Made by a program: the position numbers and the translations under genes
Shown: one piece after another, positions 3,325 to 62,300 of the stretch
Layout of the letters: the number at the start of each line of letters is the position of its first letter
Numbering within the stretch: the stretch's first letter is position 1
Origin: an uncultured Planctomycetales bacterium
GTDB lineage: Bacteria > Omnitrophota > Gorgyraeia > Zapsychrales > CAYRXT01
Assembly (NCBI GenBank): GCA_964428315.1
Contig: CAYRXT010000001.1
Span: forward strand, 18,944 to 82,943
DNA length: 64,000 bases
Reading direction: 5' to 3'
The notes under the pieces: generated by a model
Seen by the model: only the letters and a program-made list of their open reading frames with translations
What the model was told of the DNA's origin: nothing
The model's database searches: none

Positions 3325-3374
3325 TGAAGCAGATAACTTGTCTATGAGAAGGTTTAATCAGGAGGTGAATATCA

Positions 3375-13667: not shown

Positions 13668-13696
13668 TTGCAGAAGCATGATTAATATGGTATAGT
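13668..13696 (+). promoter_or_regulatory. candidate sigma70 promoter TTGCAG-N17-TATAGT
   Basis: -35 at 13668-13673, -10 at 13691-13696, in an AT-rich spacer. Confidence 0.35.
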
Positions 13697-13702
13697 TATA
13701 AC

Positions 13703-38300: not shown

Positions 38301-41300
38301 TGGGTGACGGCCCGGCTATCGTCAGCAAACGGTTCGTCTGGGATGAGGCCTTTACGCTCGGGGAAGACGGTTTCTATGTTATGAACCCGGACGCGCCGGA
38401 TATCTTCCATGAAGGGACGGTCAGGGATCCCGCGTATTACGCCCGATTAACTGAGGTGTCCGGTAAAAATACCATCGGGATCAAGAACCGTTATGAGGAG
38501 CAATTGGATAAGGCCTGGGAACTGCAGGCGGCCGGTGTAGAGAGGTTTAACACAAATAAGAAAAAAGGTAACCTGCCTGAGAAAATCGCAGTAGCTCAGG
38601 CAGGGCTGGAGCAGTATACCCTGGCGGTCCAAGCTTTTCAAGAGACAAAAGAATGCTGGGAGGAAAACAGCGAGGCATTACGCGAACGGTATGTGTTTCC
38701 CGATGAGGAGGAGGGTAATCTGCGAGAGGTTATCATGTCCTCGCAAGCGAACATGGCAAAGATGACGAAGTTCCTCGAGTATCTTCAACGAGAGCAGGAA
38801 AAGATATCCCAGGTGGCCGCCGAACATGCCGCGCCGGAATCCGACAACCACATGGCGGAAGACAACGCCGAGCCGGATTATTATGATTTAGAGACACTTA
38901 TTAAGGATCGGGCCTACGGCTCATGGACGGTCTCGGCCGTTCGCGAAGAGCTGAAGAAGCTCCTGGCCATGAAGAGATGGATGATAAACGCCGTGAGGAT
39001 CGATCCCCTGACCGGGCTTTACAATCGGGCCGGTCTGGAAGAAAAGCGGAACCGGTTGAGAGAACTGCTGGCGCGCGAGGAGGAAAACCGGGCCCTGGCG
39101 CACTTGATGCTGGACATTGATTATTTCGGGGCCTTTAACAAGATTTTTGACCAGGAGACGGGCGACAGGGTTCTGGAGGGTTTTGCCCGTGCCATTAGAA
39201 GGACAATAAGGGACGGGGACGTGGCGGCGCGTGTCGGAGGCGAGGAGTTTTCCCTCGTCCTGCCCGGAACGAATATGGAAGAGGCGGAATCGCTTGACCA
39301 ACGGATCCGCGAGGAGCTTGCCGGAACAGAGAATCCATTATTCGGGGATCTTAACAGAAAGCAGTTTGTTCAGTGGCGCTTGAACGGGGTGATGCGTAAG
39401 ATAAAGGAAAGAACGATCCGCAATAGTGACGATATCAAAAACATAAAAGCCGCCCTTGTTCACCAGCTCCATGTCCAGGATATCCTTGAAAAGGAAAAAG
39501 CGGAGAAAATGGCCATACACGAACTTCCCATCGGTAAGTTGCGGAAATGGGTCGTGACCTACAGCGCGGGCGCGGCGGAGTACAGCGAATTCCAAGCGGC
39601 AGGAAACGCTTTGCGGTTCCTTGACGCCGCGGCGGATCGGGCTCTGTATGCGGCCAAGCAAGGTGGCCGCAATAAGACGGCCCGGTTCCAAGGCACGATT
39701 GATAAGTTTGAAGAGGAGAATGAAATATCGCCGGCCGGGCCCGCTTCTGGGGGGCTTGAACTTTCCGGAATCGACTGGGCCGATAGTGAAGTGGAGAAAA
39801 AAAGAAAAAAGACGCTGATTCGGGATATAAACAAGGTGAAGCAAGACCTGCAGGTCCTTAGGCCTTTGACCGAGACGGATCCTCTCACCGGCCTTGCCAA
39901 CAGAAGGGGGGGTGCCTTTTCTTTCGCCGCGACGCGGTCTCTGCTTGCTCACGCCTTGAGGAAACGGCATCTGTCCATAGCCTTATTGGATCTGGACCAT
40001 TTTAAGGTTATAAACGACATTTTCGGCCATGACGGGGGAGACCGGGTCTTGAGTTTTCTGGGAAAAGTTTTGGGGGATAAGATTCGGGGCATGGATCTCG
40101 CCGCAAGGTTCGGGGGCGAGGAGTTCACCCTGGTCGCGCCTCATGCCCGTCCGAGCGAGATGGCGGGGGTCACAGAGCGGATAAGACAAGCTTTGCGCAA
40201 TGATTCTCTTGTTCCGGACTTTTTGAGCGACCGCGAAACCATCCATACAAGGATTAAAGAGATCATTAAAAAGGGCGACACGAGAGATATGAGCAAAACC
40301 GCCGCCGCGGTCAGGCTTCAGTTGATCACGCAGGGGCTGGCCGAAGCGGGGGATCTGGTGGACAAAGGACTGGAAGACTTGCCATGGCATAAACTTGAAA
40401 AATGGATCGTGACCTTCAGCAGCGGTATCGCCGGTTATTCCGTTGCTCATAATCGGGAGGAAGGCACCCCTGCCTGGCAGGAGGCAGGGAAGCGTGCCGA
40501 AGAGAAGCGCAAGGAGGCCAAGCACGGGGGCCGGGACACTGACGAGGTAGACGATAGTGGCGGTTTCACCGAAGATGTTCAGGCAATAGGCGAGGTTTGG
40601 TTCGACGAAAACAACAGACCACAGGTAAAATTACCATCCCCCGACAATGACCGTGACGTTAATATGGCTGAGAGTATTGAAGCCGGACAAGCGGCAGGTA
40701 CGGCGGTACGGAACACCGGCTCAGTATCGTTGGGCGGTCCGGGAAAGCTTCCGCCGGGCAGTTCGGTGGAGACGGGTTCACGGCCGCCTACGCCGGAGGA
40801 GTTGTCGGCGCATAGGGGAGATGCGGGATCTTCCGGGCCACCCGCATGGGCCTCTCATCCCGCCGTGGGGGACAAGGGTCCCTTGGGCAGTTCAACCTTT
40901 AGCACGGTCATGCCGGTGCGGAAAGATGACGGTGCGGCCGGCGATGTCGGCAGTACCGTGTTCATGGGCAGTATGCCGGTGTCCATGAAGCTTCTGGCCC
41001 GGGTGACCGCCGATGCCGTGGTTTCGACGGCGGACCTCAGGGAAGATATCCTGCGCATCCTGGAGAAGGACCCGCGCACGCTGATCCGCTATACCCACAA
41101 CGGCCGCGATTTCTACGCGCTGACGCGCGATGAACAGGGCCGCGTCCGGGTCGAATCCATAAGCCCCGACGACGTGCTCGCCGAGATCAAGGCCAAGAAG
41201 CAGGTCGCGCTGTTGGCCAACCCGTACACCCTGTACCCGGACAACCCCGATTATCCCGAACACGTGGACACCCCTGTCAGGCAGGCCGTGGCCGCGGCCG

Positions 41301-44300
41301 AGCAGGTCAATGAGGACATCTTCGGCGTGTTTGCCGGCCGGCAGAAGCCGGGGCGCGGCGCCGCGCGGACCGGAGGACAGGCCGGTGACGGCACGTTTGA
41401 GGCCCCGGGCGCGCTTCCCGGCGAAACTCCTTTTATCCCGGGAACGCCCGCCATGCCGGTCAACCCGGTCAGCCCGGTCAATCCCCTGCTCCACATGGGC
41501 ATCATGATCTTCGGCATGATCGGCGGCGGCGCGGACGAGTTCCTCGGAAGGACGCTGGGCCGTTCACAGAAGCATAAGAGCCGGCAGAGGGGCCTGATCG
41601 AACTGGCGGCGCGCCGTATCAGCAAAAACTTCGCAGAGGAAGCCCCGGTCACGGTGAGGGACGTGGACACGGGCCTTGTGCCTGAAGAGAAAGAATTTTT
41701 GTACATGATGGAGGAGGACACCAATTTCGCCCTCCGGCTTCGGGATAAGATCATTGTCCCTCCGGAACCGGGGAAAGACCACGATCCCCGCGGCCCGCCG
41801 GAACGCCCTGAGCGCGATGTCTTTATGGTCGAAGATGTCCCGCCTGCTCTGCCCGGGAGCGTTTTCTCCAACGTCAGGCCCATCGAGAAGGTCGAAGTCC
41901 CCGCGTCATTATATCCTTACGAAGAAAAAATCAAACCGGCCGGTCAAAGAAGGACCCAGTTCTCCGAGATCGATGCCGTCGACAAAGCGTCCGACCTCCT
42001 TGACGGGGCCGCGAAGGCCGGCGACATATCAGACGAGGTGCGGCACATGTGGGTCCAGTTATTCGAGCTGAACAGCGATGAGGACGGAAAGCTGTTGATC
42101 GGCTACCGCCCGGACCAGATCTTCCTCGACCAGATCCTCTTTGAAGACAAGATCGGCATCCTCGAGAACGCCAGGGGCAAGTCCGCCGTCCTCGCGAACC
42201 AGTCCATCCGCAACGTCCGCAAGGGCCATAATACCCTCCTGGTTGCCAAGAACATCGCGCAGTATACCGGAGACGCCGACGCCCCGTTCGTCAAGAGCTG
42301 GAACGAGACGGCCCGGCATATCCTGAAAGACGACGGGGCCGCCTTCATGGACCTGGACAAACTCTTCGAGACCTGGAAGAAGGCGAAGGGTCCGGAGCGG
42401 GACGAACTCGAGAGGGAGATGCTGGAAGCGCTGAAAGATCCCCGGAAGGTCAAGGTGGTCACGAAGGATACCATCGGGTACATGCTCCTCCATTTTATGA
42501 AATACGGGGAGTTTGAGCTTTTGGGCGCGCTGACAAAGCTCGTGCTGGAAGGCAAAGGCGTCGTGGACGAGATCGACGAGGTTTACCTGGCCACGGTCAA
42601 GAGCTACATCATTGCCCTGGGTTCCGGCGAGGAGATCCCGGCCCTGGTGCGGATGCACGAAAAACAGCTCGAGAAGCTCTTCAAGCGGCTGAACATGGAG
42701 GGCAGCAGCGAGCCCCACGCCTTCGACCGCGATTCGCGCTGGCCGGTCATCCACCGGGCCGAGACACCGGAAGAGTTCGAGGCGTACCAGAAAAAGAGCA
42801 AGCTGGCCTATTACGCCGGTCCCACGGGCGGCCCCATGGTCACCGGCCACCACGATTTTCTCCTCACCGAGGCCGTGTACCAGCACCGGGCGTTCAGGAA
42901 CATGTCGAGGAACATGGTTTACCAGGCCGCCAAGGCCAAGGTCGAGCCCCTCACGGCCAACATCACCTTCGCGGAGGACGAGAACGGCAAGATCGTCAGG
43001 CTCGGCCACCAGGAGATCGCCGGAAAGCTCGTGGAGAACATGCGCGTCTCCAACATCCCCTACATGGTCATCAAGGCCAAGCAGTACGGTGTGAATATCA
43101 AGGACCTGCCCTTCTCGGAAGGTTCGTCGCTTTCGGTGGCCATGACGCACGCCTTTTCCAAGAACGTGGTCGGCGTGTCCGCGACCAACATCGGGCTGGT
43201 CGCCTTGCTCGGCCTCACCGGCAAGCGCATCGCGGTCATCAAGTCGAGCGACATCCTGGAACAGATCGCCATGTCGCCGGAAGACCCCGGTTATAAGACA
43301 AAGTACGTGAAGATCGTCCATGACGACGGCGCGGACGTCCAGGATGAAAGGCTGAAGACCCTGGTGCTGGAGAAGCTGGGCAAGGGCGGATTTTCCGATG
43401 GAATATACTGGGAATTCTCCATCTTCGCCGCGAAGCCGGACGAGCGCGAGCGCGTCAGGAGGGCCGTTAACGCGGCGATTGATGCCACCGTCAAAGGGGA
43501 TGACGGTCAGGGCCTTGTCAAACCGGTCCTGGTCAACCTGTCCACGAACACACCGGAAGAAGACAAAAAGCTCATCGCCCGCAACGAAGAACTGCCCACG
43601 GACACGGAAGACGAGAAACTGAACCGGACCAACAAAGAAAAGAACAGGCGCTACCGCCTCGGCCACCCCCGCAGGATCATCCTCTGGTCCTTCGACGCCA
43701 AGAAGGCCCTCACCGTGAAAGGCAAGAGGAGCGTCAACATCCAGTTCGGCCTGGACGACACCCTGGACTCCGCCGCGCACGGCTCCAAGCGGACCCAGCG
43801 CGACGATGACGACATCGAGGGCGAGCGCTACCTCTTCCTAGAGACCGGGGCCCTCAAGAAGAAGCTGGCCACCGTGCCGACCGTGGTCCTCGCCTTCGAA
43901 GAGCTGATCAATAAAAACCGTGACCTCCTTGAAAGGCTCGGCCTCGGGGAGGACGTCCTCAAGGAGAACGTCCACGTCTTCATGGACCATTTCAAAGGAA
44001 AAGTCCTTGGCGCCGGCCTCCTGGAGAAGGAGGAGTTCACCCGCCAGGAGATGATCGAAATGTACACGGCCCTGGTCAGGTACAACACCATCCTCCAGGT
44101 CAACGTCACCACCAAGGCCAGGATCAACGCCCTGAACAAGGACACCCGGATCGTGGACCGCGTCCAGGAATGGATCGAGAGGAACAAAAAACTCCTGTCC
44201 CAAGCGGAGGAGCGGCACGACAGGGACGGGGTCAAAATGTACAAGAACAATGCCGCCATCCTGGAGACGCTTTACCGCCAGGTCACCTGGGGCCTTTTTG

Positions 44301-47300
44301 AGGGCGAGGACAAGCTTTCCCTGGACCCGGTCACCGGCGGCGGCTGGGCCTTCAAGGCCTCGGAGATGAGCTGGAAGAACGTCCTGCAGATGTGCGAGAC
44401 CGCGCTCAAACTGCGCGAGAACGGCCAGGGGCTGTCACAAAAACTGCGGTACATGGTGGAGGCCCACGCGAACCTGGCCAAGGACCGCATGGAATGGGAG
44501 ATGAAAAACACCACGGAGATCCTGAGGTTTTCCGACTTGACGCGGGTCATGACCGGCCTCAAGGATTCCGTCAAGTCTGAGGGCATGACCGCGGCGGATT
44601 ACGAGAACCTCTACCGCTTCAGCGTGGAGATGGCCGAGGTGACGCTCCTGCCCACCCGGGTCGTCTCCGACACCCCGAAATCGGCCCTTTACGCCCTGCC
44701 GGCCGAGATGCAGTCCGTGGGCCGCGACCTAGAGACCGTGACGCTCGACGAACTGCCCGCCTATCTGCGGACACTGTGGCAGGACCTCTCGGACAAGTTT
44801 GAGACAGGGGCGCAGGGCTTCGACGCCTGGATCCGCGCGGACGGAGGAGGCAAACAGATACGGGATATCATCGAACAATACGGCTGGCTCGTGCCCGGGA
44901 CTCGGAAGCTGGGCGAGCACGCGGTCCAGTTTGTGCGCATGGCCCTCGATTTCATGGCGCGGCCCGTGGAGGTCCGGGAGAAGCTGGTGGCCCTGGCCGG
45001 CGCGCGCTCGCCGCTCGAGGCCGCCTACAAGCTGTTTGTCAGCGGGATCACCAGCCAGAGGACCCTGATGCTTTTGGTCTTCATGTACAGTTTTTACGTG
45101 GAGAAACTGGAAGGCGGGGGCCTGAGCCTGAAGCAGCTGCGGGAGGTTATGACAGCCGTTGCCGACAGGCCCCACGAGCTGGCCGTCGAAGTGGCCCGGC
45201 GCATGGGGCTGGAAGAAAGTTACATCATCCGGAACTTTGAACAGTGGTTCAGGGATGAAGGCTTCGGGGAGCTCACCGAGGAATACCTCGAGGAATGGAG
45301 CGACGCGCTGAAGCACGAAAACAGGATCAGCCGTCTCCTGCGCGGCAGGATCGCCAACGCGCGCCAGCATTTCAGGCAGAAGAAGGTCCGGGAGACCGTG
45401 AGCCGGCTCATGAACCTGTGGGCGCCGCCGCTCAAGAAGATCGAAGGCCTCCTGGAGCGGGTGCGGAAGTCCGCCGTCATGGATGACCTTTCCCACGTGG
45501 AGCTCATGAGCATCATGGGCGTGAACCCCCCGATGAACAAGGTGCTGGGCCTCAGCGGGCGTTACAAACATTTTCTTGAATCCGCGCGCGAGGTGTTTTC
45601 GGACAAACACTACCGAAAACAGACCGTGCCGACCATCGCGTACCTCGCCGCCTTCCCGCGCAACATCGTCAGTTTTATCATGAGGCCGCGGCAGAGACAA
45701 GATAACCTGGGGACGGTCGGCGCGCAGAAGGCCGTCGAACAGGAAATGGCCTTCATCGCCGAACACGGGTTTGTCCCTGTCAGCGAGATCAGGGCCCTCC
45801 TCCGGGAGAGGATGACGTCCGATGAGCGGGGTGATACTAAGGACCTCTCAAAGGGCGACGCCGGCAGACTGCGTGAGCTGATCGGCCGCGCGGTGGACGG
45901 ACATGTCGCCGCGGAGCGGTTCCTGCGCAGTCCCGAACTCGCGAAATATCTCTCCCGGGTGCGCGTCGTCATCCGGGGCCGCCTCAACAGCAAGACGGAG
46001 ACCGACGAGAATAAAAAGGAAAAACACGTCAAGGGCGTGCTCGAAGACTTGGCGGACAAACTGGGCGCGCTGGAAGAGGACGTGGACGAACAGGGGTTCC
46101 TTGAGAGGGTAACCGGGGAACCGGGGATCACAATTGTTCAGATCGAGCGGATCCACAACATGATCCGAGACTGGCACGAAAAGACAGGGCTGGACATCGA
46201 ACTGTCCCTCGACTCGGTCCTGCGCGCCGGTATTGACGCGCTGGAAGAATACCTGGCCGCGTACGCGGAATTCAGGCAGGAAGAACTTGACGTTGAGGCA
46301 TTAATAGAAGGGACTAGGAAAGCCGGACCGGATGCCGCGTCCTTGGAGGATGTCCTCAAGGGTAAAGACAGCCGGGGGGCGCGGGGGGCGGTTTTTGAGG
46401 CCGTGGAGCGGGGCAGTCTGCCGTTGCGCGCCGCTTTGGCCCAGCTCAAGGACGCGGCCGTCATGGCGTTCAGACAGCGCGGGGCCGCCGAGCAGAAGGC
46501 CAGGGAGGCATCCATTGTTATCGGGCATAACACAAAGAACCGCGTCAACGTGGTCAACACGACGGGTATCCGGGGACGGAGCGGGTTTGCCGCGCTCCTT
46601 GAAAAGCTGGAGACGTTCATGGAGAATGTCTCCTACTACACAAGGGGCCTGCCCGTGTCCGATATTGTCCGTCAGATCAAGCTCGTGGAGGGTTCGGACA
46701 ACCTCTGGTCCTTCACCGTGCCGCCGGCGGACGTGGGCCTGGAAGAAGGCGAGGTAGACCTCAGGCTGGATATCTCCGCGCTCGAATGGTCCCCGGTTGA
46801 GCAGGCGGCGCTGGCCGTCCTTTTGGCCCGGAGCCTGAACGACCGTGAGAGCCAGCTGGCAAAAAAGATTGACAGGGAAGGGGCCGCCGGAGAGCAGGCC
46901 AGGGAGCTTGCGGACATTCTGTGGGGAGGCGAGAAAAACTCGTTCAACCACAAGGACCTGGCCGGGCTCAGGAAGGCGTTGGACGACATACTTGATGTCA
47001 TCAGTGAAAAGGCCGGTAAAGCGGATATCAGGAAACTCGCAAGAAAGATCCGCGGCATACTGAAGAAGGCTGATAAGCAGGACAAAGGCGCTCAATGGGC
47101 GGACAAGGAGATCCAGACGCTGTTGAAGAAATTTTTACACAGGTTTCAGAAGACGCTGGATGAAGACTCCATTAAGCATTCCGTCAGGACCGCGGCAGAG
47201 GAGGCCCTGGGGGTCGTGTGGGACAACAACGCCGGCCTTCTTAACGATGCCGCCGAAAAAGACAAAACCAAGGACAAGGACAAGGATGATGACGAGGATG

Positions 47301-50300
47301 ATGATTCTCCGCTCTGTTCTTTCGATGAGGAGACCGTCGACGGGGTTGCAAAGCACATACGGGATCTGATAAATGAAGAATACGGTGACATCGTCCGCGG
47401 ACGGGTTGAAGAGAGATCAGGGTATAAAAGCAGAGAGGATGCCGCGGATCAGCAGAGTTCATCGGAGGCCGCCGAAACCGTTGATAAAGGAGAAAAGGCT
47501 GAAGGCGGAACTGGGGCTGCGGAGAACCAGTCCGGAGAGAAAAAGGACGAGAAGACAGAGGAGGAACCACAGTCAGCGCCGAGCGATGGGGACACAGGGA
47601 CCCGGGCCGCGGATCAGACTGACGATCACCCCAGCGAAGGGGCAGGTTCGGGCACGGCAGAGGAAACAAAAACAGAGGATTCAAAGGCAGACGCCAAACC
47701 GCGTTCGTTCCGTGAGAAGGTTGTCCGCTTCTTCAGAGGCAACGGCGAGAAGGCGCGCGAGGTAAGCCGTCAAGTCAAAAAAGACGCCGAAGATAAGCTG
47801 AAAAAACTTTACGCTAACCATGATAGTAATGAAAAGAAACGATTGAGAGGGAAGACTCTCAGCGAAAGCCGCGGGCGCGAGGTCTATGGGCCGAAGGGGC
47901 TGGGACGCCTGTTCGATATTTTGACCAGGACGCGGTATTTCCGTATCAATCTGCCCTTTATCGGCTATTTTTACTGGGGTTACGACGGCAGGGGCTTTTA
48001 CGCGAACAAGGAGATCAGGGACGAGGAAGGCAGCACCGCCACTTTCCCGCTCCCCTCCGTCGTGGTGGCAACCGGGGGCGGGCTGACCTATTTCGACTTG
48101 ACGGACCTGGCTCCGGCTGTCGCCGGGTTTTTCATCGGCGGACCGGCCGGCGCCGCGGCCGGCCTGTGGATGGCGGCGAGCAGTCTTTTTCAGCACGAGG
48201 TCAAGGGCCCGGTGGTCGGGTTTGTTTCGGGCCACGCGCGGACCGCGGCCATGTACGGGCGCAAGGCTTCGTCCACGGCGATTTCTCTCTTCGGCGGCGT
48301 CAACAAGGTCAACCTTGACGGGCTGGCGGTGTGGCGGAAACTGCGCGTTATGGCGGCCGGCCCCATGGCTAACCTCCTGGGCGCGGGCGTGGCGGTCTTT
48401 CTTGGCGCCCTTCTGGGCGGTCTGGGATTCGAATCCCTGGCCGGCGTCCTGAGCGGCGCGTCGGATTTCAGCTCTTTCGGCGCCATGATAGCCAGCATGG
48501 GACAGAACATCGCCGGGCTGGTGCAGTCCGTGGGCAGCGGGCTGTGGTTCTCGCTCGATTTTTACCAGAACATCAACCTCCTTACCCTGAACCTGTTCCT
48601 GGCCCTGTTCAACCTCCTGCCGTTCGGGTTTACCGACGGCGGACGCATGCTGAGTGAAGGCCTTACCGCGTTGCTGAAGTCCACGTTGTACAGGAACGAC
48701 GCTTACGGCGCGGAGCGCGCGGCCAAGACCGTGATGAAATGGTGGACACGCTCCGCGGGCTTGATCGGGGTCGCCGCCCTCGCGGTCAGCGGGATAGACT
48801 GGATCGCGGCGTTCAGGACCGGAGGCGGCGTGCTCCTGGGCGGGACCCTTGTTCTCGGGACCGCCGGTTATCTGGCCGGGAAGATGATCAAAAAGTTGAC
48901 CAACGCCCGGGTTCCGGCTGCCGTGAGATACCTTAGAAACGGCATGCTGATAGCGGCCGGTTCGGTTGTCGCGCTTCATTTTGGGGCGATGCTGTTCAGC
49001 CACGCGGCGGCGTCCGCGGCCGGGAGCGTCGCGCAAGGCCGGCTGCCGGCCTCGGTTTTCCTGAGCGCCGCGGCGATAGCCCTGATCGCGAAGATCATCA
49101 AGAAAGACAGCGCCATTGGCCGCGTGGTCAGGCCCATGACGACACGCGTTTTCTGGAGCGGCCTGGTCATGGGTATTCTGGTCATAGGGGGCAACATGGG
49201 GCTTGTCTCGCTCGGGGCCGGGTCTGGGGCGGCCGCGGGACTCAAGGTCTTTGAGGGCGTTATGCAGAATTTGAACGGCCTGGCGCCGGCGATGCTGAAC
49301 GGCGCGGCCTCCTTCCTCGGGCTGACGGCCCTGGCGCCGTTCGCGGGTCATGTCGCTGGACACTGGCTGTTTGCCTCCGGGGCCCTGAGGGTCCTCGTGG
49401 TCGGCCTGGTGTCCGAATTCATGGACAACGATCCCTACAGCCACGGCAATAACACCGATGACGAATATCAGGACGGTGAACTTCACGGTAGTCTTTTCCC
49501 CAATGTTTTCAATATAGGGACATCTCTGCTCAGGACAGCGGCTGATATAACCGGAGAAGACGGCGATCCTCATTGGCAGCAGGTGAGCGTGACCGATCCC
49601 GGGCTGTCAGATTTTGGACCGGGACCGGATGAAGACGGTTATGTGCCTGACGCCGTCGGCATGCCCTTGCCGCCGGCTCCGGCCGCGGGTCCTTTGATCC
49701 CGGGGACGCAGACGCCGTTATATTTCTTTGAGCCGTCTTCTTCGACGTTTCCGCTGATCTTCGGCGCGACGACTCCGGGCCCTGACGGAATGAGAATGAC
49801 AGTGGCCTCGGCTTCGCGCGGGGACGCCGATCCCTTCCAGGCGGCCACGACCGACAGGGGCCCGTTTGCCAATGTCAATTCCGCCGCGCCGGTCGAACCG
49901 GTGCCGCCGAACCCCGGCTCCGGTAATAACAACCCGGGCGGTCCGGGAGGCGGGAATCCTCACGCGGTGATCGCCTTTGTCAATAGTCAGGCAGGCGACC
50001 GTGCCGCTGTGGCACATTCCAGTGTTACCGATCCGAATATCTCAGGTTATCGTTGGACTCTATCGACATCTAGCAATGTCAAAGCGTCACATTATATGTC
50101 AGGCAACACAAGTCCCACGCCGTTTCGCGCTGCCGCCCTTTCCACAAAGGGTCAGGCAGGGAACGCAGTAGAGTGGATCATTGATCAAACAGGAAGAGCA
50201 GTACGTGTAACAGTACACGCAGTTGCTGGTCTGATTTTGCCGACGCCGGTGTACGCGGCTGAGGTGAAAGACAGTGAAGTCTCTAACACGCTTATCGGCA

Positions 50301-53300
50301 AAGGGTTGTATGGATTCGGCCCGGCGTCGGTCGCGGGTGATGTGACAGGTGTGCGAGGTGTGCGCACGCGGAACAGCAGTGCCACAAGTGAAAACGGTCC
50401 AGCCATCCGGGTTACATCGGGCGTTGACGAAGCCCCGATGGGCCGAAAAGGCGGTATCCCGAGTGTCTATACCGGAAACGGTACAGGCGCGGAGGCGTTC
50501 TTTGGTGGTGTCAGTTTTGCAGGTAACAACGGTCAAGATCGGCCTGTGACAACGGCGACGGTACCTGTCGTCCACGGCTGGAACGGATTGACCGGCGGGG
50601 TTACCGGTGGTTCGGGAAGTGCGTCCGGTCGGAACGCGGGGAGATCCGCGGGACAATCGGGCCGGAACCTGAGAGATGTTCCAGAAAATCTCAGGTTCTC
50701 TGGTGTTTCCTCCACAGGCGGCCAAGCCACGGACTACCGCTATAACAGCGGCAGAGAAAGCCGGGAATCCGGGACAGGGACAACAGGCATCCCCACGGAC
50801 GATGCCGGGGACGGCGAAGCCGGTCCCGAAGGGTCCAGGGCCACAGTCACGGGAGGATCGCGAGGAAAGGGTGTTACCCGAGGTTCGATTCGTGTGTCCG
50901 GTACCGAAACGGTCCATGAGACCGGAATGGCTGCCGGCGAAGCCTTTAATGCGAATCGGCCCCGCACTGAAGACAGTACCGTCCGGCATGACGGACCAAA
51001 TGAAGTTGTAAATAACCCTGTGAGCCGTTTAGGAAACAGAAGAAACGGTCTGCAGGAATTTTCTGTATTCCCCACAGACGTCATTTCCCTCTACAGCGGG
51101 TTCGATTTCTCCCGTATTTTCCAACGGATATTCAACTCAATCAAACTGTCGTTGCGGGCCCTGAAAGGGCCAAGCGATGACACAAGCCACGGAGGTGCGC
51201 GATGGTTTACCCAAAGCAGAACTTTACGGACATGGATCTCTCGCACGCGGTCGAGTTTCCGGAATGCGATGTCTCGGTTAACACGGGCCGTGAGCGTTCG
51301 ACAGGACGAACGCGGATCTTCCTCATCTTCCATCACACGGGCCGGGCGTTCGCCCGTTACCGCAACGCCTGGTCGCCTCTGGCGAACGATGACGCGCGTC
51401 TTGTCCTGGCCCTCGCGGCGAGCTCAGATATCCCGCGCTATCGCGCTTCCGGCAGTCCTGATAGCCTTATTCTCCAGTAATGAAGCCGTGGCGGCCGGCG
51501 GGCTTCCGGCCGAAAACCTTCATTTGACCCCGGCCGGCCTGGCGGTGTTCCTGGCCCTGGGCGCGGTCGCGCTGGGGATCTACCTCTATCATGCCGCCAA
51601 TAATGAAAAGGCGCCGGGCCTGTCCGGAACCGGTCTGATCATGCGTGAATGGCTTTACGGCGGGGCAGATCTCCTGGCGCTTGTCGGCAGTGACCCTGAA
51701 ACGGCCCGGGACGTCCTGAAGACGCTCGAGGCGCTTACCGGCGAACCGGGCGCGGCAGGAAAGAATTTCCATGATAAAGAGGTTTATTTGAGGGCCCGGG
51801 ACACGTTCTTCGCTGATCTGGATTCCCGGGGCGTTACCTGTGAAGAATTGGAGCGTCTGACCGCCTCTCTCAGGGAAACAGCGGGCCTGGCCGGTGAGGC
51901 CCGAGAGGAGGAGACCGCTGAGGTTGTCCGTTACGCGCGAGAGGCGCGGACCGGCGTTTCCATGGCGAAATGGATCGGATGGGCGGCGGTCGCCGGGAGC
52001 GTCATCGGCCTGCTCGGCCGCATTGTCCTGGCCGGCCCGGTTGACGCCGGCATCCTCTGGCTGTCCGGCAGTCTGACCGCGGCCGGGGCGGCCATCCTTG
52101 TTGCCGACCTGACTGCCGGGCGCTGGGAAGGCATCAGGGATTCCCTGGAGAGCATTACGGACCGGTTGACAACCGGAGACGCCCGATTCTTCCCGCGCAT
52201 CCGCTATTCGAGGAAGACCCTGGCCCTGGTCATCGGCCTCATGATGGCCGTGCTTGCGGCCGGGATGGTCGGGGACGCCCTCCAGTCTCAGGAGCCATGG
52301 ACAACCACGGACTCCGGATACGTGAATGACGCCGCCGCCGGGACCGCGGGCGGCAGCGCGGCAGGCCCCGCCCCCGAGAACGGAGAGGGCAGGGAACCGC
52401 CGGATCCCGAAAAGACGCTCTCCCGGAACGCGGACGAACATCCCTTGCGGCGGGACCAGGACGTTGTTTTCGCCTCCATGGTGGATTGCGAGCTGGCGGT
52501 TAAACTCGCCGTGAAGTCCGTGACATGGGTTAAGGATCTGGTGGAGAAACTTCCGTTTGTTGATAACCCAGGGCGCGCGACGAGGTCTTATGAATCATGG
52601 ATCATTCCGGAAACGCCCGGGTCATGGCTCCGGGTTCAAAATGTGCACGGCAATACCGTTTATAACGCGAACCTCAACGGGATTGATTCATTCCAGTGGG
52701 ACGGCCGGGACAACCAGGACCGTGTTTTGCCCCAGGGCGTCTATCCCGCCCGGATTCGGGCCGGAAACAAGGAGTTCGGCTTTAAGTACCTTATCTCCGG
52801 AGATGATTTGGCAAGGGCCGCTTACGCCGTAGCCAAGAAAGGGACGATCAAGGCCTTCATCCCTGACCTCTTTGCGCAGGGTTTTATAGCGCCGGTAAGC
52901 ATGGCCGTTTCACCCGAGATACTCGTCTTGCTGGAAATGGAGAGGCAAGCCGCAAAGAAGAATTCCTTGGAAGATTCGCTTGCGCGGTCCCGGATGAGGG
53001 ACCTCTCGCCGTACGGTTACATTTACGACATGATGGGCCGGGAAAACCTCGAGCCGCGGGATATCCAGAGGATCGCCTTTCATTTCAGCGAACTTATGGA
53101 GAGCGAGGACGTGGAAGGCTTCAAGACAGCCGCGGACCTCTTCATGCCACGACATCAGGCGATCCTGAAGACGGAAGGGCATCGGCGGCTCTTCTGGCGT
53201 TTCTGCGACATTAACGCGGAGTTCCTGAATTGGATGGCCTGGAGAGAGGACCTTATGGTGAGCAGCGCATTCTTCCTCAAAGGCGCCGGTGAATGGCTGG

Positions 53301-56300
53301 CCGTGATTGAAGAAAACGATGAATCTGAAACGGCCGCGCGCCGTCTGGGACTGCCCATCGAAGAGAGCCGCAGTGTCGGACCGGGGATGACAGAAGATTT
53401 AACAGGGATGAAAATGGCCCAGGCCTCGACGGGCCGATACCTGGTGGCGGCCAACCTTTACAGGGCCCTCCCCATCTTGACAAGGAAGCAGATAAACCGG
53501 TTGGCCGGCGGCGTTATCGACCATGTGCGCTTTGTCCTGACCGGAGAAAACGCGCAAGGCGTCATTGAACTTTATCCGGTCCAGGCGCCCGAACCCTGGA
53601 CCTACGCCCTGGCGAAGGTCCCGTCAAATTCTTTCTTCGGTGATGCCAGATACCGCGATATACATACAGACTGCGTCACGCACGAAGCCGAGCATTTGTT
53701 CAAATATAACCGGATGGACATGCCGCTTTACATGAACACGGAGGTGGCTTTCAACGGCGGGTACATCCGGCTGGGGCCGGACGTCGTGCTTATGCGCGCG
53801 GTAGCGGTTTCCTTGTATAACCACTTCACCGGAAAGGACATGGTCGAGCCCGGGACAGCCTGGCAGGGGAGGCCGTGGCTCCAGTATCCGCATTTTGAGG
53901 AAGGCGGCTGGGCCGACTGGCAGGGGAAATGGGGCGGCTGCGTCGATTCACTGAGAAATTATATTGCGCGGAAAGCGGAGCGTGAAATCGTTTCCGACCG
54001 CAACTCTGAGATCGAAGAGGCCATCGCGGCGTACAGCCGCGGCCGGGATCTTTACCGCCTTTCCATGGGATACAGGGAATTCCTGGAGGAAAAATACGGT
54101 CCGGCGGCCGCGCGGTTCGGCGCGGACGTCTTCTTTGAATGGGTTAGCCGTTTCCCGGTCCTGGACGCGGACGTCGACACCTTGAGCCAGAAAGGCGTTT
54201 ACGGGCTGAGCCCGGCCGGGGCGGCGGTGGCCGCGGAGGCGACCGCGCGTTCCTATGCGTCGGACATCAGGGATATCTTCGTTGATGTCTGGAAGGGGAT
54301 ACGGCTTTGGAGCCATCAGGGCGTGACACCCGAGCAGGCCGCCGGCCGCGCGCGTTCGGCCTTTTACCGGACCTATGTGCCGGTGATCGTGGAAACCGTC
54401 AGAAGTATGAACGTCCCGCTGAGGGCCGAAGGGGCTCAGCTGGATTCTCTCGTCGGAGTTGTTATCGAAAAATTGGAAGATTTCGCGTATACGGGCGGCG
54501 ATATGTTTGACCCGGCTGTGCCGATGGATATTGCCGACGCGGCGGTTGTCGCGGCGGTGCTTGACGAAAATATCGGGCACAACTACACCGTGGACAACGG
54601 AGGTTTCAGTGTCATGGCCGATTCGCTGGACGAGGCTGAAGGAAAACAAGTGGCGATGAGCGCCGCCGGCGAGGCCGTTTTCTGGCAGGAGGACCCCGTC
54701 CCCGGCGAGCCGGGCCCGCTGCCCGTTGTCCCGGGGCGGCAGAACTTTATCGTCAGTTCGGTTTTCCTGACGGCAAACTGGATCCGGTCAATGCTGTCTC
54801 AAGACGCGCGGGCCCTTGACAAGACCTCCTCCGCGGCCGTGGAGGGCTTCTTTTACACGCCGCTTCCCGACGCCGATAATGTCGTCGAGGATACGGCGAT
54901 GACGGCGCTGTTCCGGGACAAGGTCTCGGAGATGGGCTGGCCGCACCCGTATCTGTTCCGCGCGATCCCGGTGTTTTACGTGGACAGCCGGACGGCGGAT
55001 TCCCTCGGGGTGACATGGGTCGGGCCCTACGAAGACTTCACGTCAAATGGATTCTCCCCGGAGGCGGACCCGGACCAGGACAGGGTTGTTTGGGCGCCGG
55101 TGGTGGACGGGATGTGGGGCGGACCGGGTCCGGCTCCGGAGTACCAGGACTATTACGACCCGGACAACCCGGATTACGACATGGCCGAGGATTATTCGGT
55201 GAGCCTGGCCGATACGGTTACCGGCGAGATGTGGGACTTCTGGTATTTCCGGGTGGATGTCCACGGCAATTATTACGCCTCGGCAGTGAAGTACTGGGGG
55301 CCGGGCAGCTGGCGGGGAGACGGGATCAGCACCTGTCAATATCCGGGGATCCGGGGCGCCGGGACACCGCTGGGCGCCGGACTGCTGACGCAGGAAGAGA
55401 TCCTGCGGGCGCGCGGAGGAGACATGGACGCGGTCACCCACAAGCTGATTTTCGCCTGGCCCTATTCCAGCAGTGAGATGAGATGGCCGGCGACACGCTC
55501 CGACGGGTGGAGGAGCGCGGGCGAGGGGATACCGGAAGGAACACTCTTACAGCTTGACCCGGGACATGATTATGAGCCGTATATCCGCCATTTGTCTTCC
55601 GAAGAAGACAGGAACGTGGCCCTCGCGCTGATCCGCGCGCTGAAGACATACGGCGCGGTCTGCGTGGACAACGGCGGAGGGTTCGGGATCATCGTCGAGC
55701 AGGTGGACGGCACGCACGCGAAACTGAACCCGGACTGCCTGGCGGGGATCAACCTGGACAAGTTCCTGGTCGTGGCGCCGGAGAGTTTCCCCGCGGGCCT
55801 GGCACTGGAGCGGAGGATTGATCCGGAGGATCCCCTTGAGGGATATAAAGAGGTCGGTATTGAGCTGATTGTCAACAGGGACGATCCGGCGGCCGCCTCG
55901 AAGGTCCGCGCCGAGTTCCGTTCGCTGGACGGCGAAAGCCTGGTGGAAGACAACAGGCACTTGATGCGGATGAACCTGGCGGCGGGTGAATTCGCGTGGC
56001 AGGACATGGGAGACGGCCGGGCGCGGATCGCCTTCGGGGTGGAGACTTCCAGCCGGGGCGGGGCGGAGAGCCTCATGGCCGACACGAGATACATCATGCG
56101 CCTGACCGTGGAGGACGGGCGGGGCGCCGAGAGCTATCCGCTGATCCATTCCTTCCGGTCGCCGGCCGTGGCGACGGACGTGGTCCCGGCCGCGGACGGT
56201 GACGGCGAAGATGGAGGAAATCTCCCGCAAAACTACCCGAACCCGTTCAATGCGGCCACGTCGGTGTGGTATGAGGTGCCGGAGGCCGGGCGCGTGGAGC

Positions 56301-59300
56301 TTAAGGTGTACACGGTCTCCGGGCGGGAAGTGAGGACGCTGGTGGATGAGTACCGTGAGGCCGGGCAGTACAGCGTGGTGTGGGACGGGCGGGATGATTC
56401 CGGCAACAGCGCCGCCGCCGGCGTTTACCTGTACGTGGTGAGGCTTGACGGCAGGGTCATCGCGTCGAAGAGGATGACGCGGATGGCGGCGCAGAGGGAC
56501 GGCCGGCAGGGATGGCTGGGAAGCCTCAAGGACCTCTTCAGCATCTCTGAGGCGAGCGCGGCGGTCGAAAATCGGTACGCGGCGGCGCGGATGAAGGCTG
56601 GACCTTTCGCCCTCGAGCCGGCCGAAGCGGCCGCGCGGGCGGTCAACACGCCGGAGCCCGCCGGTCAAAACGCTGAAGAAGGCCGCGTCAGCCTGACGCT
56701 GGGGGATGTTTACGAATATATTGACATGCTCAGGGATTACAGTGACGGGCAGATACAGGGATATTTTGACATGGTCCCGGCGCTTCAGACGGCGGAGGTA
56801 TGGGAGGATTACGCGGTCATGGTCCGGATCCTGCTCCGGGAAAAAGGCGTTGCCGGGGACCCCCTGCGGTATGAACTCTTTGCCAGCCGGCCGGAAGGTC
56901 CCGGGACCGAAGTCGTGCCGGCGGTCTCCGAAGAGGAGGCCATGGATATCCTGACCGGGAAGAAATACGCCTACGACACCTTGGCCGTCAAAAGACTGTA
57001 CAAAGAAGTTATCGAGGAGCATCAAAGCAGGATGGTCCGCGACCCCGGGCTTTCGCGGCTGGAGGTCTTCCTCATGCGGTCCCAAAACATCACGCCGGCC
57101 GAGGGGCCGGAGGCGCGTTTTGGGCGCTTACAACGGACACACGCGGACGATGAGTTTGTCTCGGCCAATAGGCGTATAACCCTTTATGGTAAGGACATTT
57201 TCCACCCGACATACATCCTGGACATAAGGGGAACCGAAGTTGTGCTTAATGTGAGCCTGAAACCGGTGTTCCAGACCGCCGCGGCCGAACAACTCCTTGG
57301 GAAAATTGATGCCCGCGGCGCCGAAACCCAGGCGCTGGATATGGTGGACACACTGATGATATATATGGAAACCGCCTGCCGGGCGGAAGAGGCCGGGGAC
57401 AGGGAAAGCGCCCTGATCAACTGGAAACACGCGCTGTGGCGCGCGGAACAACTGCAGAGACTGCCCCAACCATCCTTCAGGTGGTGGTATTACGAATTCG
57501 CTGAGGACCTTGTCGATTCTATCAGGCAGTATATCCGCCGTCATTATGAGGCGCCGGGCCGGGGTATTTGGGATCGGCCCGGAGCCGTCCTCCACGGTTG
57601 TTTAAAAGGAAAGACGGGGCCGGCGGCCGGTTCGATCGTGATGAGCCTGGCGCCGCTTATGGCGCGCGCGGCCGATCAATTGGCCGGCGCCTTTGCCCAA
57701 AAGCGGCCATCGCGGGAGCCATCTATTAAAGATATTAATGGAATTATTAAGAAAATAGACGGATTAAAGGCAAGCGTGACCAGGGAAATAGCATCTCGAG
57801 AAGATGAAAGGAAGGTTAAGGATGCGAGGAAGAAGATTTATGCGTTGATATCGAAACTATACATTTACGCGTCAGAAAGCAATATCGGTATCGAAGGTTT
57901 TAAGAAGGAGGCCTGGAAGCTGATCGACCTCGCGGAGTGGGGCAACATTAACGTCAGGATGAAAGCCAGAGATCAATTACGAAGTATCTTGAACAAGAGG
58001 ATCCCGTCCATGAAAGAAGATCCTCGGCATAAAGATCATTTGGATGAAATAAAAAAGATCGAGAAGGAAATGAAGAGAATTATTGATGAATTTGATAATC
58101 GAGGCAAGAAGAGCCCCCGCGGATGTGCCCCGGCGCCTTCCATGGTCAAGACGGTCCTGCGGGCGGCGATGAATGGAGTTCAGTATATCCTTGCCGGCCC
58201 CGAGCTCCAGGCGGCGGAGGCCGCTCATGCCGCCGGGGACAAGTTCTGGCAGGATGTGGCCGCGCAGGGAGAATACAACCAGGCGGACATCGACGAAATG
58301 GCGCGGGTCACCGACAGCCTGTGGCTCGCCGCGGACCTCCCCTCGCCGGATGACGTGGAACAGGACTTGGTGCCGGCCCTGAAGACGGTCTCGACCGCGG
58401 AAGATTCCCTGGAACTGGCCCGGTCGTTCCTCTCGGCATGGGAAGTGGAAAAATTCAGGTTTCAAGACGCAAGGCAGCATGTCCTTTTCTCGCGGATCTT
58501 CGCCGCCCCGCTGGCCGCCGCTGACAGTATGCGGAGGGTTTTGAGCGGAGACCGCGGGACAGACAGGATAGAAGATGTCCTCGGCGAAGGCTGTGCTCTG
58601 GGCAGGCCTTACGCCGGGGCCGTCCTGTCCCGTATTTTTGAAGAGACGGCTGTTGATGTGCTGGGGATGGATTTGCCGGGGCATGTCTGCGTCTTTGTTG
58701 CCCTGAACACGGAGTACGGGTTTATTTATGACCCTTCATCGCTGACAACAAGCCGGGTCTTCCGTCTGGCGCGGTACACGGAGAAGGCGGGAGAGACCTA
58801 TTACTTCAAGGAGGCGTTCTACACCGAGGTCATGCCCGAAGGGTGGGCACCTGACAGGGATATATACACGGAGTTCCGGCTGTTATCCGTTGAGAAGTTC
58901 GCGGCAAAGATTCTGTTCAATATTGGCACTTACTATCTTGACCTTGATGCATTCTCAGCAGCGGCGGATTATTACAGACGAGCGCTGGCCGTGGATTCGA
59001 CGGACGCGGACGTCCTTAACAATTTGGGTAACGCTTATTTCAATCTGGGCGAATACGGGGCCGCGGCCGAACAGTACACGGCGGCGCTGACCTATAATCC
59101 CGAGAGCATTGAAAGCCGCAAATATCTGGCCCTGACCCTTGCTGAGCAAGGCAAAAAGACGGAGGCCATAATCAATCTTAAGGCATACCTGGGCGAACGG
59201 CCCGACGATTATGCAATGATGTTTCAATTGGCCCGTATGCATACGGCGAAGATTTGGATGATTTTGGGGACTTTTTTGGCCGCTTGTATCGTGGTCCTGG

Positions 59301-62300
59301 GAAGAAAACTCGGCGGACGGAACAAGGGCCGCGGCGACGGGAGCCAGGACCGTAAGGCGGGGGCGCCGGATAACGGGCGAAAGGGAGAAGACACTCATCT
59401 CAAAGCCGGGATTGAGATTGAGGGGCCGGCCGCGCGGATCATCCGGACTGTCCGCGGGTGGATGAGGAAGCTGGTTTTCAGGCGGTATGCTTCGGACACT
59501 GTTAAGGCCGCGCGCGAGAGGGCGCCTCCTGTCCGGAAGATATTCTCCCGCCTTGCTGCTTATTTTACTCAATCCCAAAGGACAAATTCCGCATCACAAG
59601 CCAATGACCATATCGAATTTTTAAATCCCAAACGGTTTCGGGCTTTGACATTTTTGACGTTCCTGACGGCCTTCTTCTTCAGCAGTGACCTGCTGGCGGC
59701 CGGGAACGCGGCGGCGCAGGAGGCCGCGCGGTCTTCCGGCCTGGAAGGCCTGGTAATCCTGCTGGCGCTGGGCGCGCTCGCGCTGGGGATGTACTGGTAT
59801 CACGCGGCAAGAGATGAAGAAGAGCCGGGCCTCTCCGATACCGGCGAAATCATGAGCCGCTGGCTTTACCAAGGGGAAGACCTCCTCGCGCTTGTGGACG
59901 GCGATCCCGACACCGCCGCGGAAGTCCTCAAGGTCCTCGAGGTGCTGACCGACCTGACCGGATTGAGGGGCGCGAAAGATCCCAAACTTAAAGCCGTTTT
60001 TGAAAACGGCCGTGACCAGTTCATGATTGCTCTGGACCGGCGGGGTCTCGGGCCGGAAGACCTGGAGCCGGTCATGGCGTCTCTCAAGACGTCAGCCGGC
60101 AAGGCCGCGCGGACTTTGCGTAATGAAGAATCCGTTGAACCCGCCGCGCGTAAGGATGAGGTAAGGCAACCCGTAGACCCCGGCGAATTTTCTCTGGCGA
60201 AATGGCTGGGCGGCGCCGTGGCCGCCGCCGGCCTCGTCGGACTGCTCGGCCGGCTGGCCCTGGCCGGAACGGCGGAAGCCGGCATCCTCTGGCTGGCCGG
60301 GGGCATAATTGTGGCCGGGGCGGCCACAATTCTCCTGGACCTGATTGTCCCGCGGTGGGATGACTTCGCGGAGGGCCTGAAGCGGATGAACGATCCGGAG
60401 TGCCGGCCGGAGCCGGTCCGGGGCGCGAGCCCGATGAAGCATTTCTGGCGCTGGACCGGCATCATCGTCCCGGTCCTCGCCGCGGCCGCGTTCCTGGCGG
60501 GCGTGATTTCGGTCCCCGCCGCCTTTGTCTCCGCGTTTTTCGGGCTGACGGCGCTGTTCGTCAGCTTCGGCTACGGCCGCGAAGGCGGTTCCTACATGAG
60601 CGGCGTGCGGCATTCCAGGGTGTTCCGGTTCGGCATGGCCCTGATGGCCGGCCTGCTCGTGATCGGGGTGTTCGCGGGCGGGGCCGACGCGCAGGACATG
60701 GGGCGGGTCGTCCAGGTCGACTACGACCGCGACGGGTTCGACGACATATCGGTGAGGCTGCCCGAGAGGGCCGGGCTCCACAGCCTCGCCGGCAAGGCCC
60801 CGGAAAAGAGCGTCTCCGAGCTGGAAGAGTTCTTTGCCGGGAACCCCGGTGTCATCGCGATGGTCCGCGAGGACCTCGCCCGGGACAGCCTGAAGCGGAC
60901 GATCCGCGATTCGCTCGACACCGAGGACTTGTACCGGGGCACGCTGGATTCGCTGGCGGCCGCGAAGACCGAAGAACTGGCCAAGTACAACCCCGGCACG
61001 GACCTCGGGGCCGACGCCGCGCTGGCCAGGAAGATGCGCGGCATCGTGCTCGACGAAGAGGCCGAGCTCCGCGCGCGCGAGAGGATCTCCCGCGACCCCG
61101 AGGCCGCGGCCGCTGTCGAGGTCAACGACGAGGCAATCAGCGAGGCGATTAAGCGGACCGCGGCCGCCGTGGACCTGCGCCACGTCTGGCCCGTCCGCGC
61201 CGAAAAGCACGGCCTGCCCGTCAACGACCTCTGGATGGCCTACGCGATCCTGGGCGGCAACTTCCCCGACATGACCGGGGACGAGATCAGCGCCACGGTC
61301 TATCGCCTGTTGAAAGAAAACGACGATTTCGGCGCCGCGTTCACGGATTTCCTGGAGAAGAAAAAGGCCGGCGCGGCCGCGGACGAAGAAGAGGCCGCCC
61401 TCAAGGCCCTCGAGGTCACCTTCGCCGACAACCCTGATATCATCCCGTCCATCGTCCGGACCTGGAACGAGCGCCGGGAATTGCTGGAAACCTATTTCTC
61501 GGACCTCGGCGCCTTCGGCAAGTTCACCCGGGCCGTGATCATGCAGGAGAGCGGGTTCGGCACCTACGCGACGAGCCACAGGTTCGACAGCTCCGGCAGG
61601 AAGATCCCGCTGGCCAAGGGCCTGATGCAGATCATAGACGCGACCTATGCGGACCAGAGCGGGAAGCTGGGGCTCGGTCCGGACGTTTACCACCGTCTCG
61701 ACAACGTCCGGGCCGGTACCGATTATTACGCGGATCGACTCAGGGATTTCCGGGATATCGAAATGGCCCTGGCCGCGTACAATTACAGAGCTTATAAGGT
61801 CGCGGCAGCTATTGCCGAAGCCAAAGGCATTTTGCTGACTGTCGCGAAGGAGAGTTTTACAGATTTGATAGCCGGAGGAAATATTGACGCTTTTCTGGAC
61901 GAGAACAGGGATTCCTTTAGAGAGTCTCCTGAAGAGATCAAGGCCGCGGCCGAACATCTGTCTGCCGATATGGCCGGGTTAAATGCGCTGCTGGGCATGA
62001 CGGCGTCTGATGCAAAGCGCGATAAGGTCACCAGGAAGCTCGCGGCGCCCAGGGTCTTGGAGATGATCGCCGAGGGCTCGCTGAAACCCAGTTTTGGGGA
62101 GACCGTTTCTCTGCTTCCCTCCGAGACCCAGAATTACGTGCCCAGCATCCTCCACATGTACGGCCGTGCCGTCGAGTACGTGGAGGCCAAAACCAGCGGC
62201 AGGCCGGCCGCCGTCAAGGCGCGGCCGGGAGCGCCGGATTACAGCAAATATATTCCGACAGAAGAGAGCCGGACTTACGACCCCGCCCTCGAGATGAGGG

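Follow-up and report, generated by a model that had tools for sequence, protein, structure and literature searches.

The stretch of DNA analyzed in this work (hereafter the window) covers 64,000 nucleotides (nt) of contig CAYRXT010000001.1 from an uncultured Planctomycetales bacterium, whose GTDB lineage places it in the Omnitrophota. It contains a giant open reading frame (ORF) on the + strand, which is free of stop codons from 14330 to 64000 (16,557 codons), has its first ATG at 14348 (14348..64000) and is still open at the window end. Residues of the product are numbered with residue i beginning at nt 14330+3(i-1). Two segments of this ORF, modules A and B, are the subject of this report. 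The demonstrably duplicated core of module A lies at 51431..52162 (amino acids (aa) 12368-12611) and that of module B at 59636..60397 (aa 15103-15356), both on the + strand and in the same frame, with their starts 8,205 nt (2,735 codons) apart. The two segments, which an initial annotation made from the letters alone had placed 8.2 kb apart, exist and show strong paralogy. Based on sequence comparison, they go back to an old duplication, inside an Omnitrophota giant gene, of a polytopic membrane module that is itself an orphan.

Modules A and B share 47-49% protein identity. Comparison of the giant protein with itself by BLASTP, run with overlapping 400-aa chunks, aligned aa 12403-12611 with aa 15140-15355 at 48.6% identity over 216 columns (composition-corrected E-value 1.9e-47), and this pair is the strongest among only four internal repeats found in the visible 16,557 aa. 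The local alignment extends from a short signal-like stretch through a two-helix hairpin, and a hidden Markov model (HMM) of the two copies matches module A over aa 12368-12648 and also supports the core of module B. The consensus blocks quoted for the two copies in the initial annotation are essentially correct in these alignments. The Smith-Waterman score of the pair is 501, compared to 42 ± 7 in composition-preserving shuffles (z = 66). Calculated by part, z is 38 for the soluble part, 16 for the hairpin, 5 for the region of the signal-like helix, and 2-3 for the last helix or helices. Only the first four hydrophobic segments and the soluble domain are therefore demonstrably homologous, and the terminal helix or helices (z = 2-3) are not.

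The segments are hydrophobic and rich in Ala, Gly and Leu, as would also be the case if their similarity were an artefact of low complexity, hydrophobic composition or an assembly error. However, the score stands far above composition-keeping shuffles, and because the non-hydrophobic soluble part alone gives z = 38, the similarity is not a product of transmembrane composition or low complexity; the BLASTP match (E 2e-47) points in the same direction. Mis-assembly of a single locus would not leave 66% DNA identity with the third codon positions most diverged. An artefact is thus extremely improbable, and the modules are genuine paralogs.

At the DNA level, blastn matched 51551-52128 with 59762-60360 (66.3% identity over 603 columns, E 3e-36); the window contains just one other repeat at this level. 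Self-comparison therefore shows a significant diagonal for both protein and DNA. The identity is 63% over the codon alignment and reaches 70-74% in the best 90-nt windows, so that the earlier estimate of about 75% for the core was somewhat high. Identities at the first, second and third codon positions are 0.66, 0.69 and 0.53, respectively, with a chance value of 0.31 for the third position, and the nonsynonymous (dN) and synonymous (dS) divergences are 0.46 and 0.72-0.82. These values suggest a duplication that is old but not saturated. The same substitution pattern indicates that the + frame is coding and that the antisense ORFs over both copies are not genes. The dN/dS ratio is 0.41 in the best block (helix 1 and the membrane-adjacent helices), 0.56-0.73 in the other main blocks, and 1.4 in a short 16-codon tail after the hairpin.

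A six-frame search of the window with the HMM from A and B revealed no further copies, leaving exactly two. Comparisons of the 400 aa upstream and the 800 aa downstream of the modules, and of the A-to-B interval with the sequence following B, all gave z of about 0 and no larger duplicated block. These flanks are unrelated, and the duplicated unit is the module alone. With significant similarity, a location in the same ORF and frame, and coding-type substitutions, A and B have the properties of an intragenic duplication, and it is almost certain that they arose by duplication.

Both modules show a common order of elements on the + strand: a basic lead-in, helix 0, a loop, helix 1, a charged domain, helices 2 and 3, a basic loop, the exit helix or helices, and an acidic stretch. 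The lead-in before helix 0 contains 6 Lys/Arg in 22 aa in A and the sequence KRFR in B, and roughly 100 aa upstream of each module are very basic. Helix 0, identified by hydrophobicity, is a short signal-peptide-like segment of 12-15 hydrophobic residues followed by a conserved F-S-S-[ND]..A-A-G. In A it lies at 51437..51484 (AIALPAVLIALFSS, with a basic run before it and NEAVAAGG after it), and in B at 59642..59689 (ALTFLTFLTAFFFSS, with KRFR before it and DLLAAGN after it). A loop of 15-18 uncharged or acidic residues leads to helix 1 (51530..51598 in A, PAGLAVFLALGAVALGIYLYHAA; 59744..59809 in B), which opens the best-conserved block (64% aa identity) with the shared LALGAxALGxYxYHAA. The soluble domain of A (124 aa, 51599..51970) is charged, all-helical and predicted to be cytoplasmic. 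Its counterpart in B (130 aa, 59813..60202) gave a compact six-helix AlphaFold2 model with a predicted local distance difference test (pLDDT) of 78-88 for residues 11-104 and about 60 at residues 51-60, although the five models disagree.

Helices 2 and 3 form a tight hairpin, located in A at 51971..52114 with a 3-residue loop (GLLGRIVLAG-PVD-AGILWLSG...AGAA) and in B at 60203..60346, with the shared sequence GLLGRxxLAG-xxx-AGILWLxG..AGAA. The loop after the hairpin is basic in both copies (6-8 Lys/Arg). In A, this loop (8 Lys/Arg in 34 aa) is followed by helix 4, the exit helix (52217..52285), and by an acidic stretch; homology of this helix to any helix of B is not demonstrable. Module B continues with helices 4, 5 and 6 (60452..60679), the last of which is signal-peptide-like (MSGVRHSRVFRFG-MALMAGLLVIGVF-AGGADA/QD). 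Hence, A has five hydrophobic segments and B seven, with an extra helical hairpin in B, and the earlier description of four-helix modules holds for the shared first four segments but not for the full modules. The signal-like stretch, which had been described as immediately preceding each copy, is present in both. However, it does not merely precede the repeat but aligns in register as its first element, albeit weakly when taken alone (z = 5). Its in-register alignment and a role consistent with the topology described below argue that it is the first helix of the module. The last helix of B with its lead-in (MSGVRHSRVFRFGMALMAGLLVIGVFAGGADAQD, 60596-60700) resembles a complete N-terminal signal peptide located about 280 aa before the SLT domain, the same order of parts as in common free-standing periplasmic enzymes.

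The first 11,300 residues of the giant ORF contain very few hydrophobic segments, which then cluster at an M50-like region, module A, a helix at aa 14974-14993, and module B. Pfam searches matched FlgD_ig-type Ig domains, with a weaker overlapping CHU_C match, after module A. The first Ig-like domain (FlgD_ig / CHU_C-like) is located about 100 aa past the module at 52613..52768 (+ strand; E 5e-5, just under the Pfam cut-off), and another FlgD_ig copy, with a stronger match, at about aa 13986. These are followed by a TPR match (aa 14869-14970, + strand) and, right after it, by a single strongly hydrophobic helix (aa 14974-14993, 59249..59308, + strand). A very basic linker (RKLGGRNKGRGDGSQDRK) directly follows this helix, with 1 Lys/Arg before versus 4 after it within 15 aa. 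The SLT domain, a peptidoglycan-acting lytic transglycosylase domain, lies about 280 aa past module B at about aa 15734-15832 (nt 61529..61825, + strand; E 3e-12, 46.6 bits, cut-off 21.3).

The module has no counterpart in the databases searched. No homologs were found by a word-index search or by pattern scans of genome contigs and metagenome contigs, and no stand-alone homolog was found in 1.84 billion representatives or 5.8 billion clusters. The sole match of an exhaustive HMMER profile search of the 1.84 billion representatives (P0001, E 2.7e-4) is a 299-aa AP2-like repeat protein that aligns with the soluble domain over no more than about 65 residues and has no membrane segments; it was rejected as a chance match. 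A Pfam search of the module at E <= 1 gave MerC (E 0.8) and DUF4395 (E 0.06) as the best hits, both far under the cut-offs, whereas the soluble domain matched nothing at E <= 10. In NCBIfam the best hit was YiaB with 14.8 bits versus a cut-off of 130. The best PDB sequence match, FtsY (E 0.64 over 34 residues), is at chance level and was not used, and a Foldseek search of the B soluble-domain model against PDB found nothing (E >= 2, template modeling score <= 0.33). As judged from these searches, A and B of this giant gene are the only known members of a family that has not been described before. The flanking sequence is equally devoid of relatives: none were detectable for the 1,401 aa around module A or for the 535 aa after module B, which comprise the signal-like helix and the SLT domain. 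The search for the stand-alone homologs suggested by the initial annotation was thus negative, but because neighbouring sequence also lacks relatives, this result says little about a stand-alone origin. It fits the singleton nature of Omnitrophota long proteins, 80% of which are sequence singletons (bioRxiv 10.64898/2026.06.07.730766).

The giant protein itself and its interior were returned by no search of public records. The upstream proteins of the window are on record in a 109,180-bp NCBI contig and in Logan contig SRR7048225_981 (37,249 bp), which ends inside the giant gene; on the public Logan contig, the product from the same start is called as a truncated 7,244-aa protein. The first 1,000 aa of the ORF gave eight partial matches with 29-48% identity, all with PF03412, and those with a named source are all labelled Candidatus Omnitrophica or Omnitrophota. 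Pfam places a Peptidase_C39 domain (PF03412) at aa 197-276 (29.1 bits, cut-off 22), close to an N-terminal helix at aa 36-57. Further Pfam matches on the + strand are an OmpA domain (aa 1820-1905), two HATPase_c and two GGDEF domains (about aa 7060-8700), and a Peptidase_M50-like helix cluster (aa 11309-11454). Omnitrophota giant genes have been described as encoding a C39 domain at the N-terminus, close to a helix of signal or transmembrane type, and numerous transmembrane regions, with type II secretion or pilus genes as neighbours (bioRxiv 10.1101/2023.11.21.568195; bioRxiv 10.64898/2026.06.07.730766). The present ORF exceeds 10,000 codons, encodes a C39 domain beside a helix at its N-terminus, and has Omnitrophota relatives as well as secretion or pilus genes nearby. 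By these sequence features, it fits the Omnitrophota giant-protein class with N-terminal C39, and the visible part does not fit the dockerin/TSP3 Archaeovorin architecture, with neither dockerin (PF00404) nor TSP3 (PF18884) matched there at E <= 0.01. A SecA_DEAD-like domain, which is reported for most full-length Omnitrophota giants, had no Pfam match in the visible 16,557 aa of an ORF that runs on past the window.

The multi-helix region resembling M50 peptidases (48100-49430, aa ~11270-11700) keeps the NxxPxxxxDG motif (NLLPFGFTDG at aa 11428) and reads HEVKG at the place expected for HExxH. Because of this replacement, the region may be an intramembrane protease domain that is atypical or has lost its activity.

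An internal signal-peptide-like segment (37745..37831, + strand, from aa 7806; MSKVLRSLGIAAAVTFFTLLPPLNSMAQD), which had been listed earlier as a third such element of the ORF, separates the second HATPase_c domain from the first GGDEF domain. This segment exists and has a textbook signal-peptide look, with an ATG start and a GGAAGGG 12 nt upstream, but shows no sequence relationship to modules A and B. The segment could represent a relic or an internal start, or it could lack a function.

The orientation of the modules can be approached through the positive-inside rule of von Heijne, according to which Lys and Arg concentrate on the cytoplasmic side of the membrane. The successive loops contain 4, 0, 5, 0, 7 and 0 Lys+Arg in A and 3, 1, 3, 0, 6, 0, 3 and 1 in B, which amounts to 16 versus 0 on alternate sides in A and 15 versus 2 in B. 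Under the positive-inside rule, these counts suggest that both modules begin in the cytoplasm and finish outside. Since the number of helices is odd (5 and 7), each module would pass the chain from inside to outside, and the extra hairpin of B keeps the count odd. The FlgD_ig/CHU_C-like and SLT domains which follow are of types normally found outside the cytoplasm. Beyond the observed paralogy, segment layout, charge asymmetry and neighbouring domain types, A and B are very likely integral membrane modules, and there is about an even chance that they have the inside-to-outside export role that their topology suggests.

With some reserve, we favour the reading that A and B are lineage-specific polytopic inner-membrane modules, duplicated within an Omnitrophota-type giant gene, which anchor the protein and restart its export. 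Each module would begin on the cytoplasmic side after the strongly basic lead-in, with the short signal-like helix 0 crossing the membrane and the long helix 1 returning. A compact helical domain of about 125 aa would then be displayed to the cytoplasm, followed by the tight two-helix hairpin, and the last signal-like helix would take the chain out of the cytoplasm, with one further helix in A and three in B. As a return helix follows helix 0 after 15-18 residues, helix 0 would not export anything large. The downstream block would instead be launched by the last helix, whose signal-like character is clearest in B. Module A would deliver the chain outside ahead of the FlgD_ig and TPR domains, the helix at aa 14974-14993 would return it to the inside, and module B would deliver it again ahead of the SLT domain. 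The modules would thus serve as membrane anchors and export-restart points of a protein woven back and forth across the inner membrane. The partner of the conserved cytoplasmic domain might, as a guess, be a targeting or translocation factor, or the domain might self-associate.

Several points weigh against this reading. The topology was derived from Kyte-Doolittle hydrophobicity and our own charge counts. Helix 0, with its 12-15 hydrophobic residues, may not span the membrane, and the parity would then change unless helix 0 and helix 1 were both affected. The global topology of the ORF does not close neatly: the M50 cluster and module A are separated by about 670 aa that lack any hydrophobic segment and change from very acidic at the start to very basic at the end. 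The signal-like segment at aa 7806 stands between HATPase_c and GGDEF domains, which are both expected in the cytoplasm, and, if functional, would put the GGDEF domains outside it and hence away from GTP. TPR domains occur on either side of the membrane. The constraint on the modules is only moderate (dN/dS 0.4-0.7 in the main blocks), and covariation and conserved surfaces are not derivable from a comparison of two sequences. Finally, the AlphaFold2 model of the full module A (pLDDT 41) was unusable.

The distribution of conserved residues might also fit a different role, in which A and B would associate within the membrane to form a pseudo-symmetric dimer that works, for example, as a channel, transporter or receptor, with anchoring and export being secondary. 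The amino acid identity is 64% in the membrane helices and 54% in the membrane-adjacent region versus 39% in the remaining soluble domain, and both copies have the same predicted orientation. The membrane helices and the membrane-adjacent region also contain small-xxx-small packing motifs rich in Gly/Ala, and an Arg in helix 2 and the His that ends helix 1 are conserved. However, 2,735 residues, among them a large outside block, separate the copies, they show no similarity to transporter or channel families in Pfam, NCBIfam or PDB, and the structure model is too low in confidence to test packing. We regard such a functional pair as improbable and prefer anchoring and export restart as the role of the modules.

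Duplication within the giant gene was not limited to modules A and B. The HATPase_c block is repeated with 30% identity (35186-35887 versus 36779-37504), the GGDEF block with 34% identity (38930-39586 versus 39827-40441), and a short 70-aa stretch with 36% identity (26777-26983 versus 28049-28264). A recent in-frame tandem duplication of 120 nt (40 aa) with 95% identity is present at 36031-36266, between the two HATPase_c repeats. Taking the old A/B pair, the diverged repeats and this recent unit together, the duplications are of different ages, and duplication in this gene seems to be recurrent. Repeats are reported to be the rule in Omnitrophota long proteins, 65% of which repeat at least one Pfam domain, and their nucleotide tandems are reported to have dissolved (bioRxiv 10.64898/2026.06.07.730766).

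The initial annotation had proposed that the giant gene grew by fusion or duplication of once-independent genes. The paralogs and the other internal repeats support duplication, whereas fusion is without positive evidence. Under fusion, each module or signal-like segment would be the relic of a once-independent secreted or membrane protein gene joined in frame, and the signal-like segments would be former N-terminal signal peptides. As read from the sequence, these segments combine a basic region and small residues at -3/-1 with a hydrophobic core whose length falls within the 7-15 residues of Sec-type signal peptides. They are internal to a single ORF (aa 7806, 12354-12390 and 15103-15125) and do not stand at the N-terminus of the translated product, although internal translation starts are conceivable. 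Three signal-like segments combining this basic, hydrophobic and small-x-small layout begin with Met, at aa 7806 (MSKVLRS..SMA/QD), 12354 (MTRVLSW..AVA/AGG) and 15423 (MSGVRHSR..ADA/QD), and the GGAAGGG stands 12 nt ahead of the ATG at 37745. Stand-alone periplasmic lytic transglycosylases are ordinary among PF01464 proteins, and the signal-like helix of B with about 280 aa and the SLT domain resembles them. However, no Met precedes helix 0 in copy B, and no ribosome-binding-like motif is found before the Met of A or before that at aa 15423. Met makes up 2.5% of residues, so that a Met within 20 aa of a helix is often expected by chance, and the Met starts were rejected as evidence of fusion because they are not significant. 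Moreover, the signal-like helix is part of the repeat itself, and the charge-based topology gives it the place of a working membrane segment, the other repeats of the same gene are plainly intragenic, and a stand-alone homolog was found nowhere among the 1.84 billion representatives, the 5.8 billion clusters and the genome and metagenome scans. An origin of the modules by fusion of formerly separate genes is compatible with the sequence but appears unsupported by the evidence here, and we consider it unlikely; duplication of a module already within the gene is the preferred explanation.

The small residues behind the signal-like helices raise the possibility that these helices are polyprotein junctions, cut by signal peptidase I or by the C39 or M50 domains of the ORF itself, with the resulting pieces anchored or released. 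AxA-type sites occur after helix 0 (AVA/A and LAA/G), after helix 6 of B (ADA/Q) and at aa 7831 (SMA/Q), and the F-S-S-[ND]..A-A-G after helix 0 is conserved inside an otherwise poorly conserved stretch. The same ORF contains C39 and M50 peptidase-like domains, and others have proposed that giant proteins are cleaved (bioRxiv 10.1101/2023.11.21.568195). On the other hand, Ala, Gly and Ser are so common that a small-x-small pattern after a hydrophobic stretch would be expected by chance, and the M50-like region lacks the canonical HExxH (HEVKG). Such junctions, for which flavivirus polyproteins would be the model, are a doubtful interpretation of these sites. A related idea, to which we likewise give little credence, is that the modules might be dedicated re-export cassettes: the cytoplasmic domain would act as a docking domain recruiting the translocation machinery, the exit helix would be cut by signal peptidase, and outside enzymes such as SLT would be released. 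If this were true, the giant ORF would encode a membrane-woven bacterial polyprotein, with processing at internal signal sequences like that in flaviviruses. Anchoring and restarted export of a duplicated module remain the interpretation that we prefer.

The region upstream of the giant gene contains two TadB/C-like genes with T2SSF matches in Pfam (11069-11929 and 11952-12887). Several small genes are also lined up there, and one of them, on the public Logan contig of the same locus, has a faint match to class III signal peptides (Class_IIIsignal). Two large upstream ORFs (5493-7133 and 7507-10629) have no Pfam match, and a 621-aa ORF at 155-2020 has a weak transposase HTH match. The GC content falls to 0.48-0.49 at 2001-4000 and 12001-14000. 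The coding strand of the giant ORF (14330-64000) is purine-rich, with A strongly exceeding T (AT skew up to +0.25) and a steadily positive GC skew. Alongside the gene runs a chain of antisense ORFs in one - frame (16424-63169), with stop-free lengths of as many as about 1,000 codons; codon bias is the most likely cause of these ORFs.

As it stands, the A/B pair adds another old internal duplication to a class of genes in which these are the rule, and it involves a module without known relatives. It also provides a concrete example of giant-protein logic, in which a cassette would be reused where the chain must leave the cytoplasm, with an inserted hairpin preserving the odd helix count. Published topology predictions for Omnitrophota giant proteins are admitted to be unreliable. 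If the pattern recurs in other giants, such cassettes could mark inside versus outside blocks and could be a starting point for topology and processing experiments.

Compared to known systems, helix 0 of both copies, helix 6 of B and the segment at 37745-37831 are similar to Sec-type N-terminal signal peptides in having a basic region, 12-15 hydrophobic residues and a small-x-small site, but they lie thousands of residues from the N-terminus. Like flavivirus polyproteins, the giant protein would be one long chain woven through the membrane, with internal signal-like helices before outside domains; it is encoded, however, by a bacterial chromosomal gene, and the resemblance is one of analogy only. 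Omnitrophota giants with intragenic repeats share with this locus a very long ORF, an N-terminal C39 domain by a helix, many transmembrane segments, type II secretion system or pilus neighbours, and repeats diverged at the DNA level. In contrast to those repeats, the repeated unit here is not a Pfam domain but an undescribed polytopic module with its own cytoplasmic domain, and the two copies are dispersed 8.2 kb apart rather than arranged in tandem. In polytopic membrane proteins with signal-anchor and stop-transfer segments, a basic lead-in followed by a helix starts translocation, and a helix followed by a basic stretch stops it. Modules A and B resemble these proteins in their alternation of hydrophobic segments with loops that are rich in Lys/Arg on a single side of the membrane. 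They differ from them in the enormous size of the segments that would be exported, which would measure about 2,300 aa behind A and >1,100 aa behind B, and in the reuse of the same four-helix-plus-domain cassette upstream of both exit helices.

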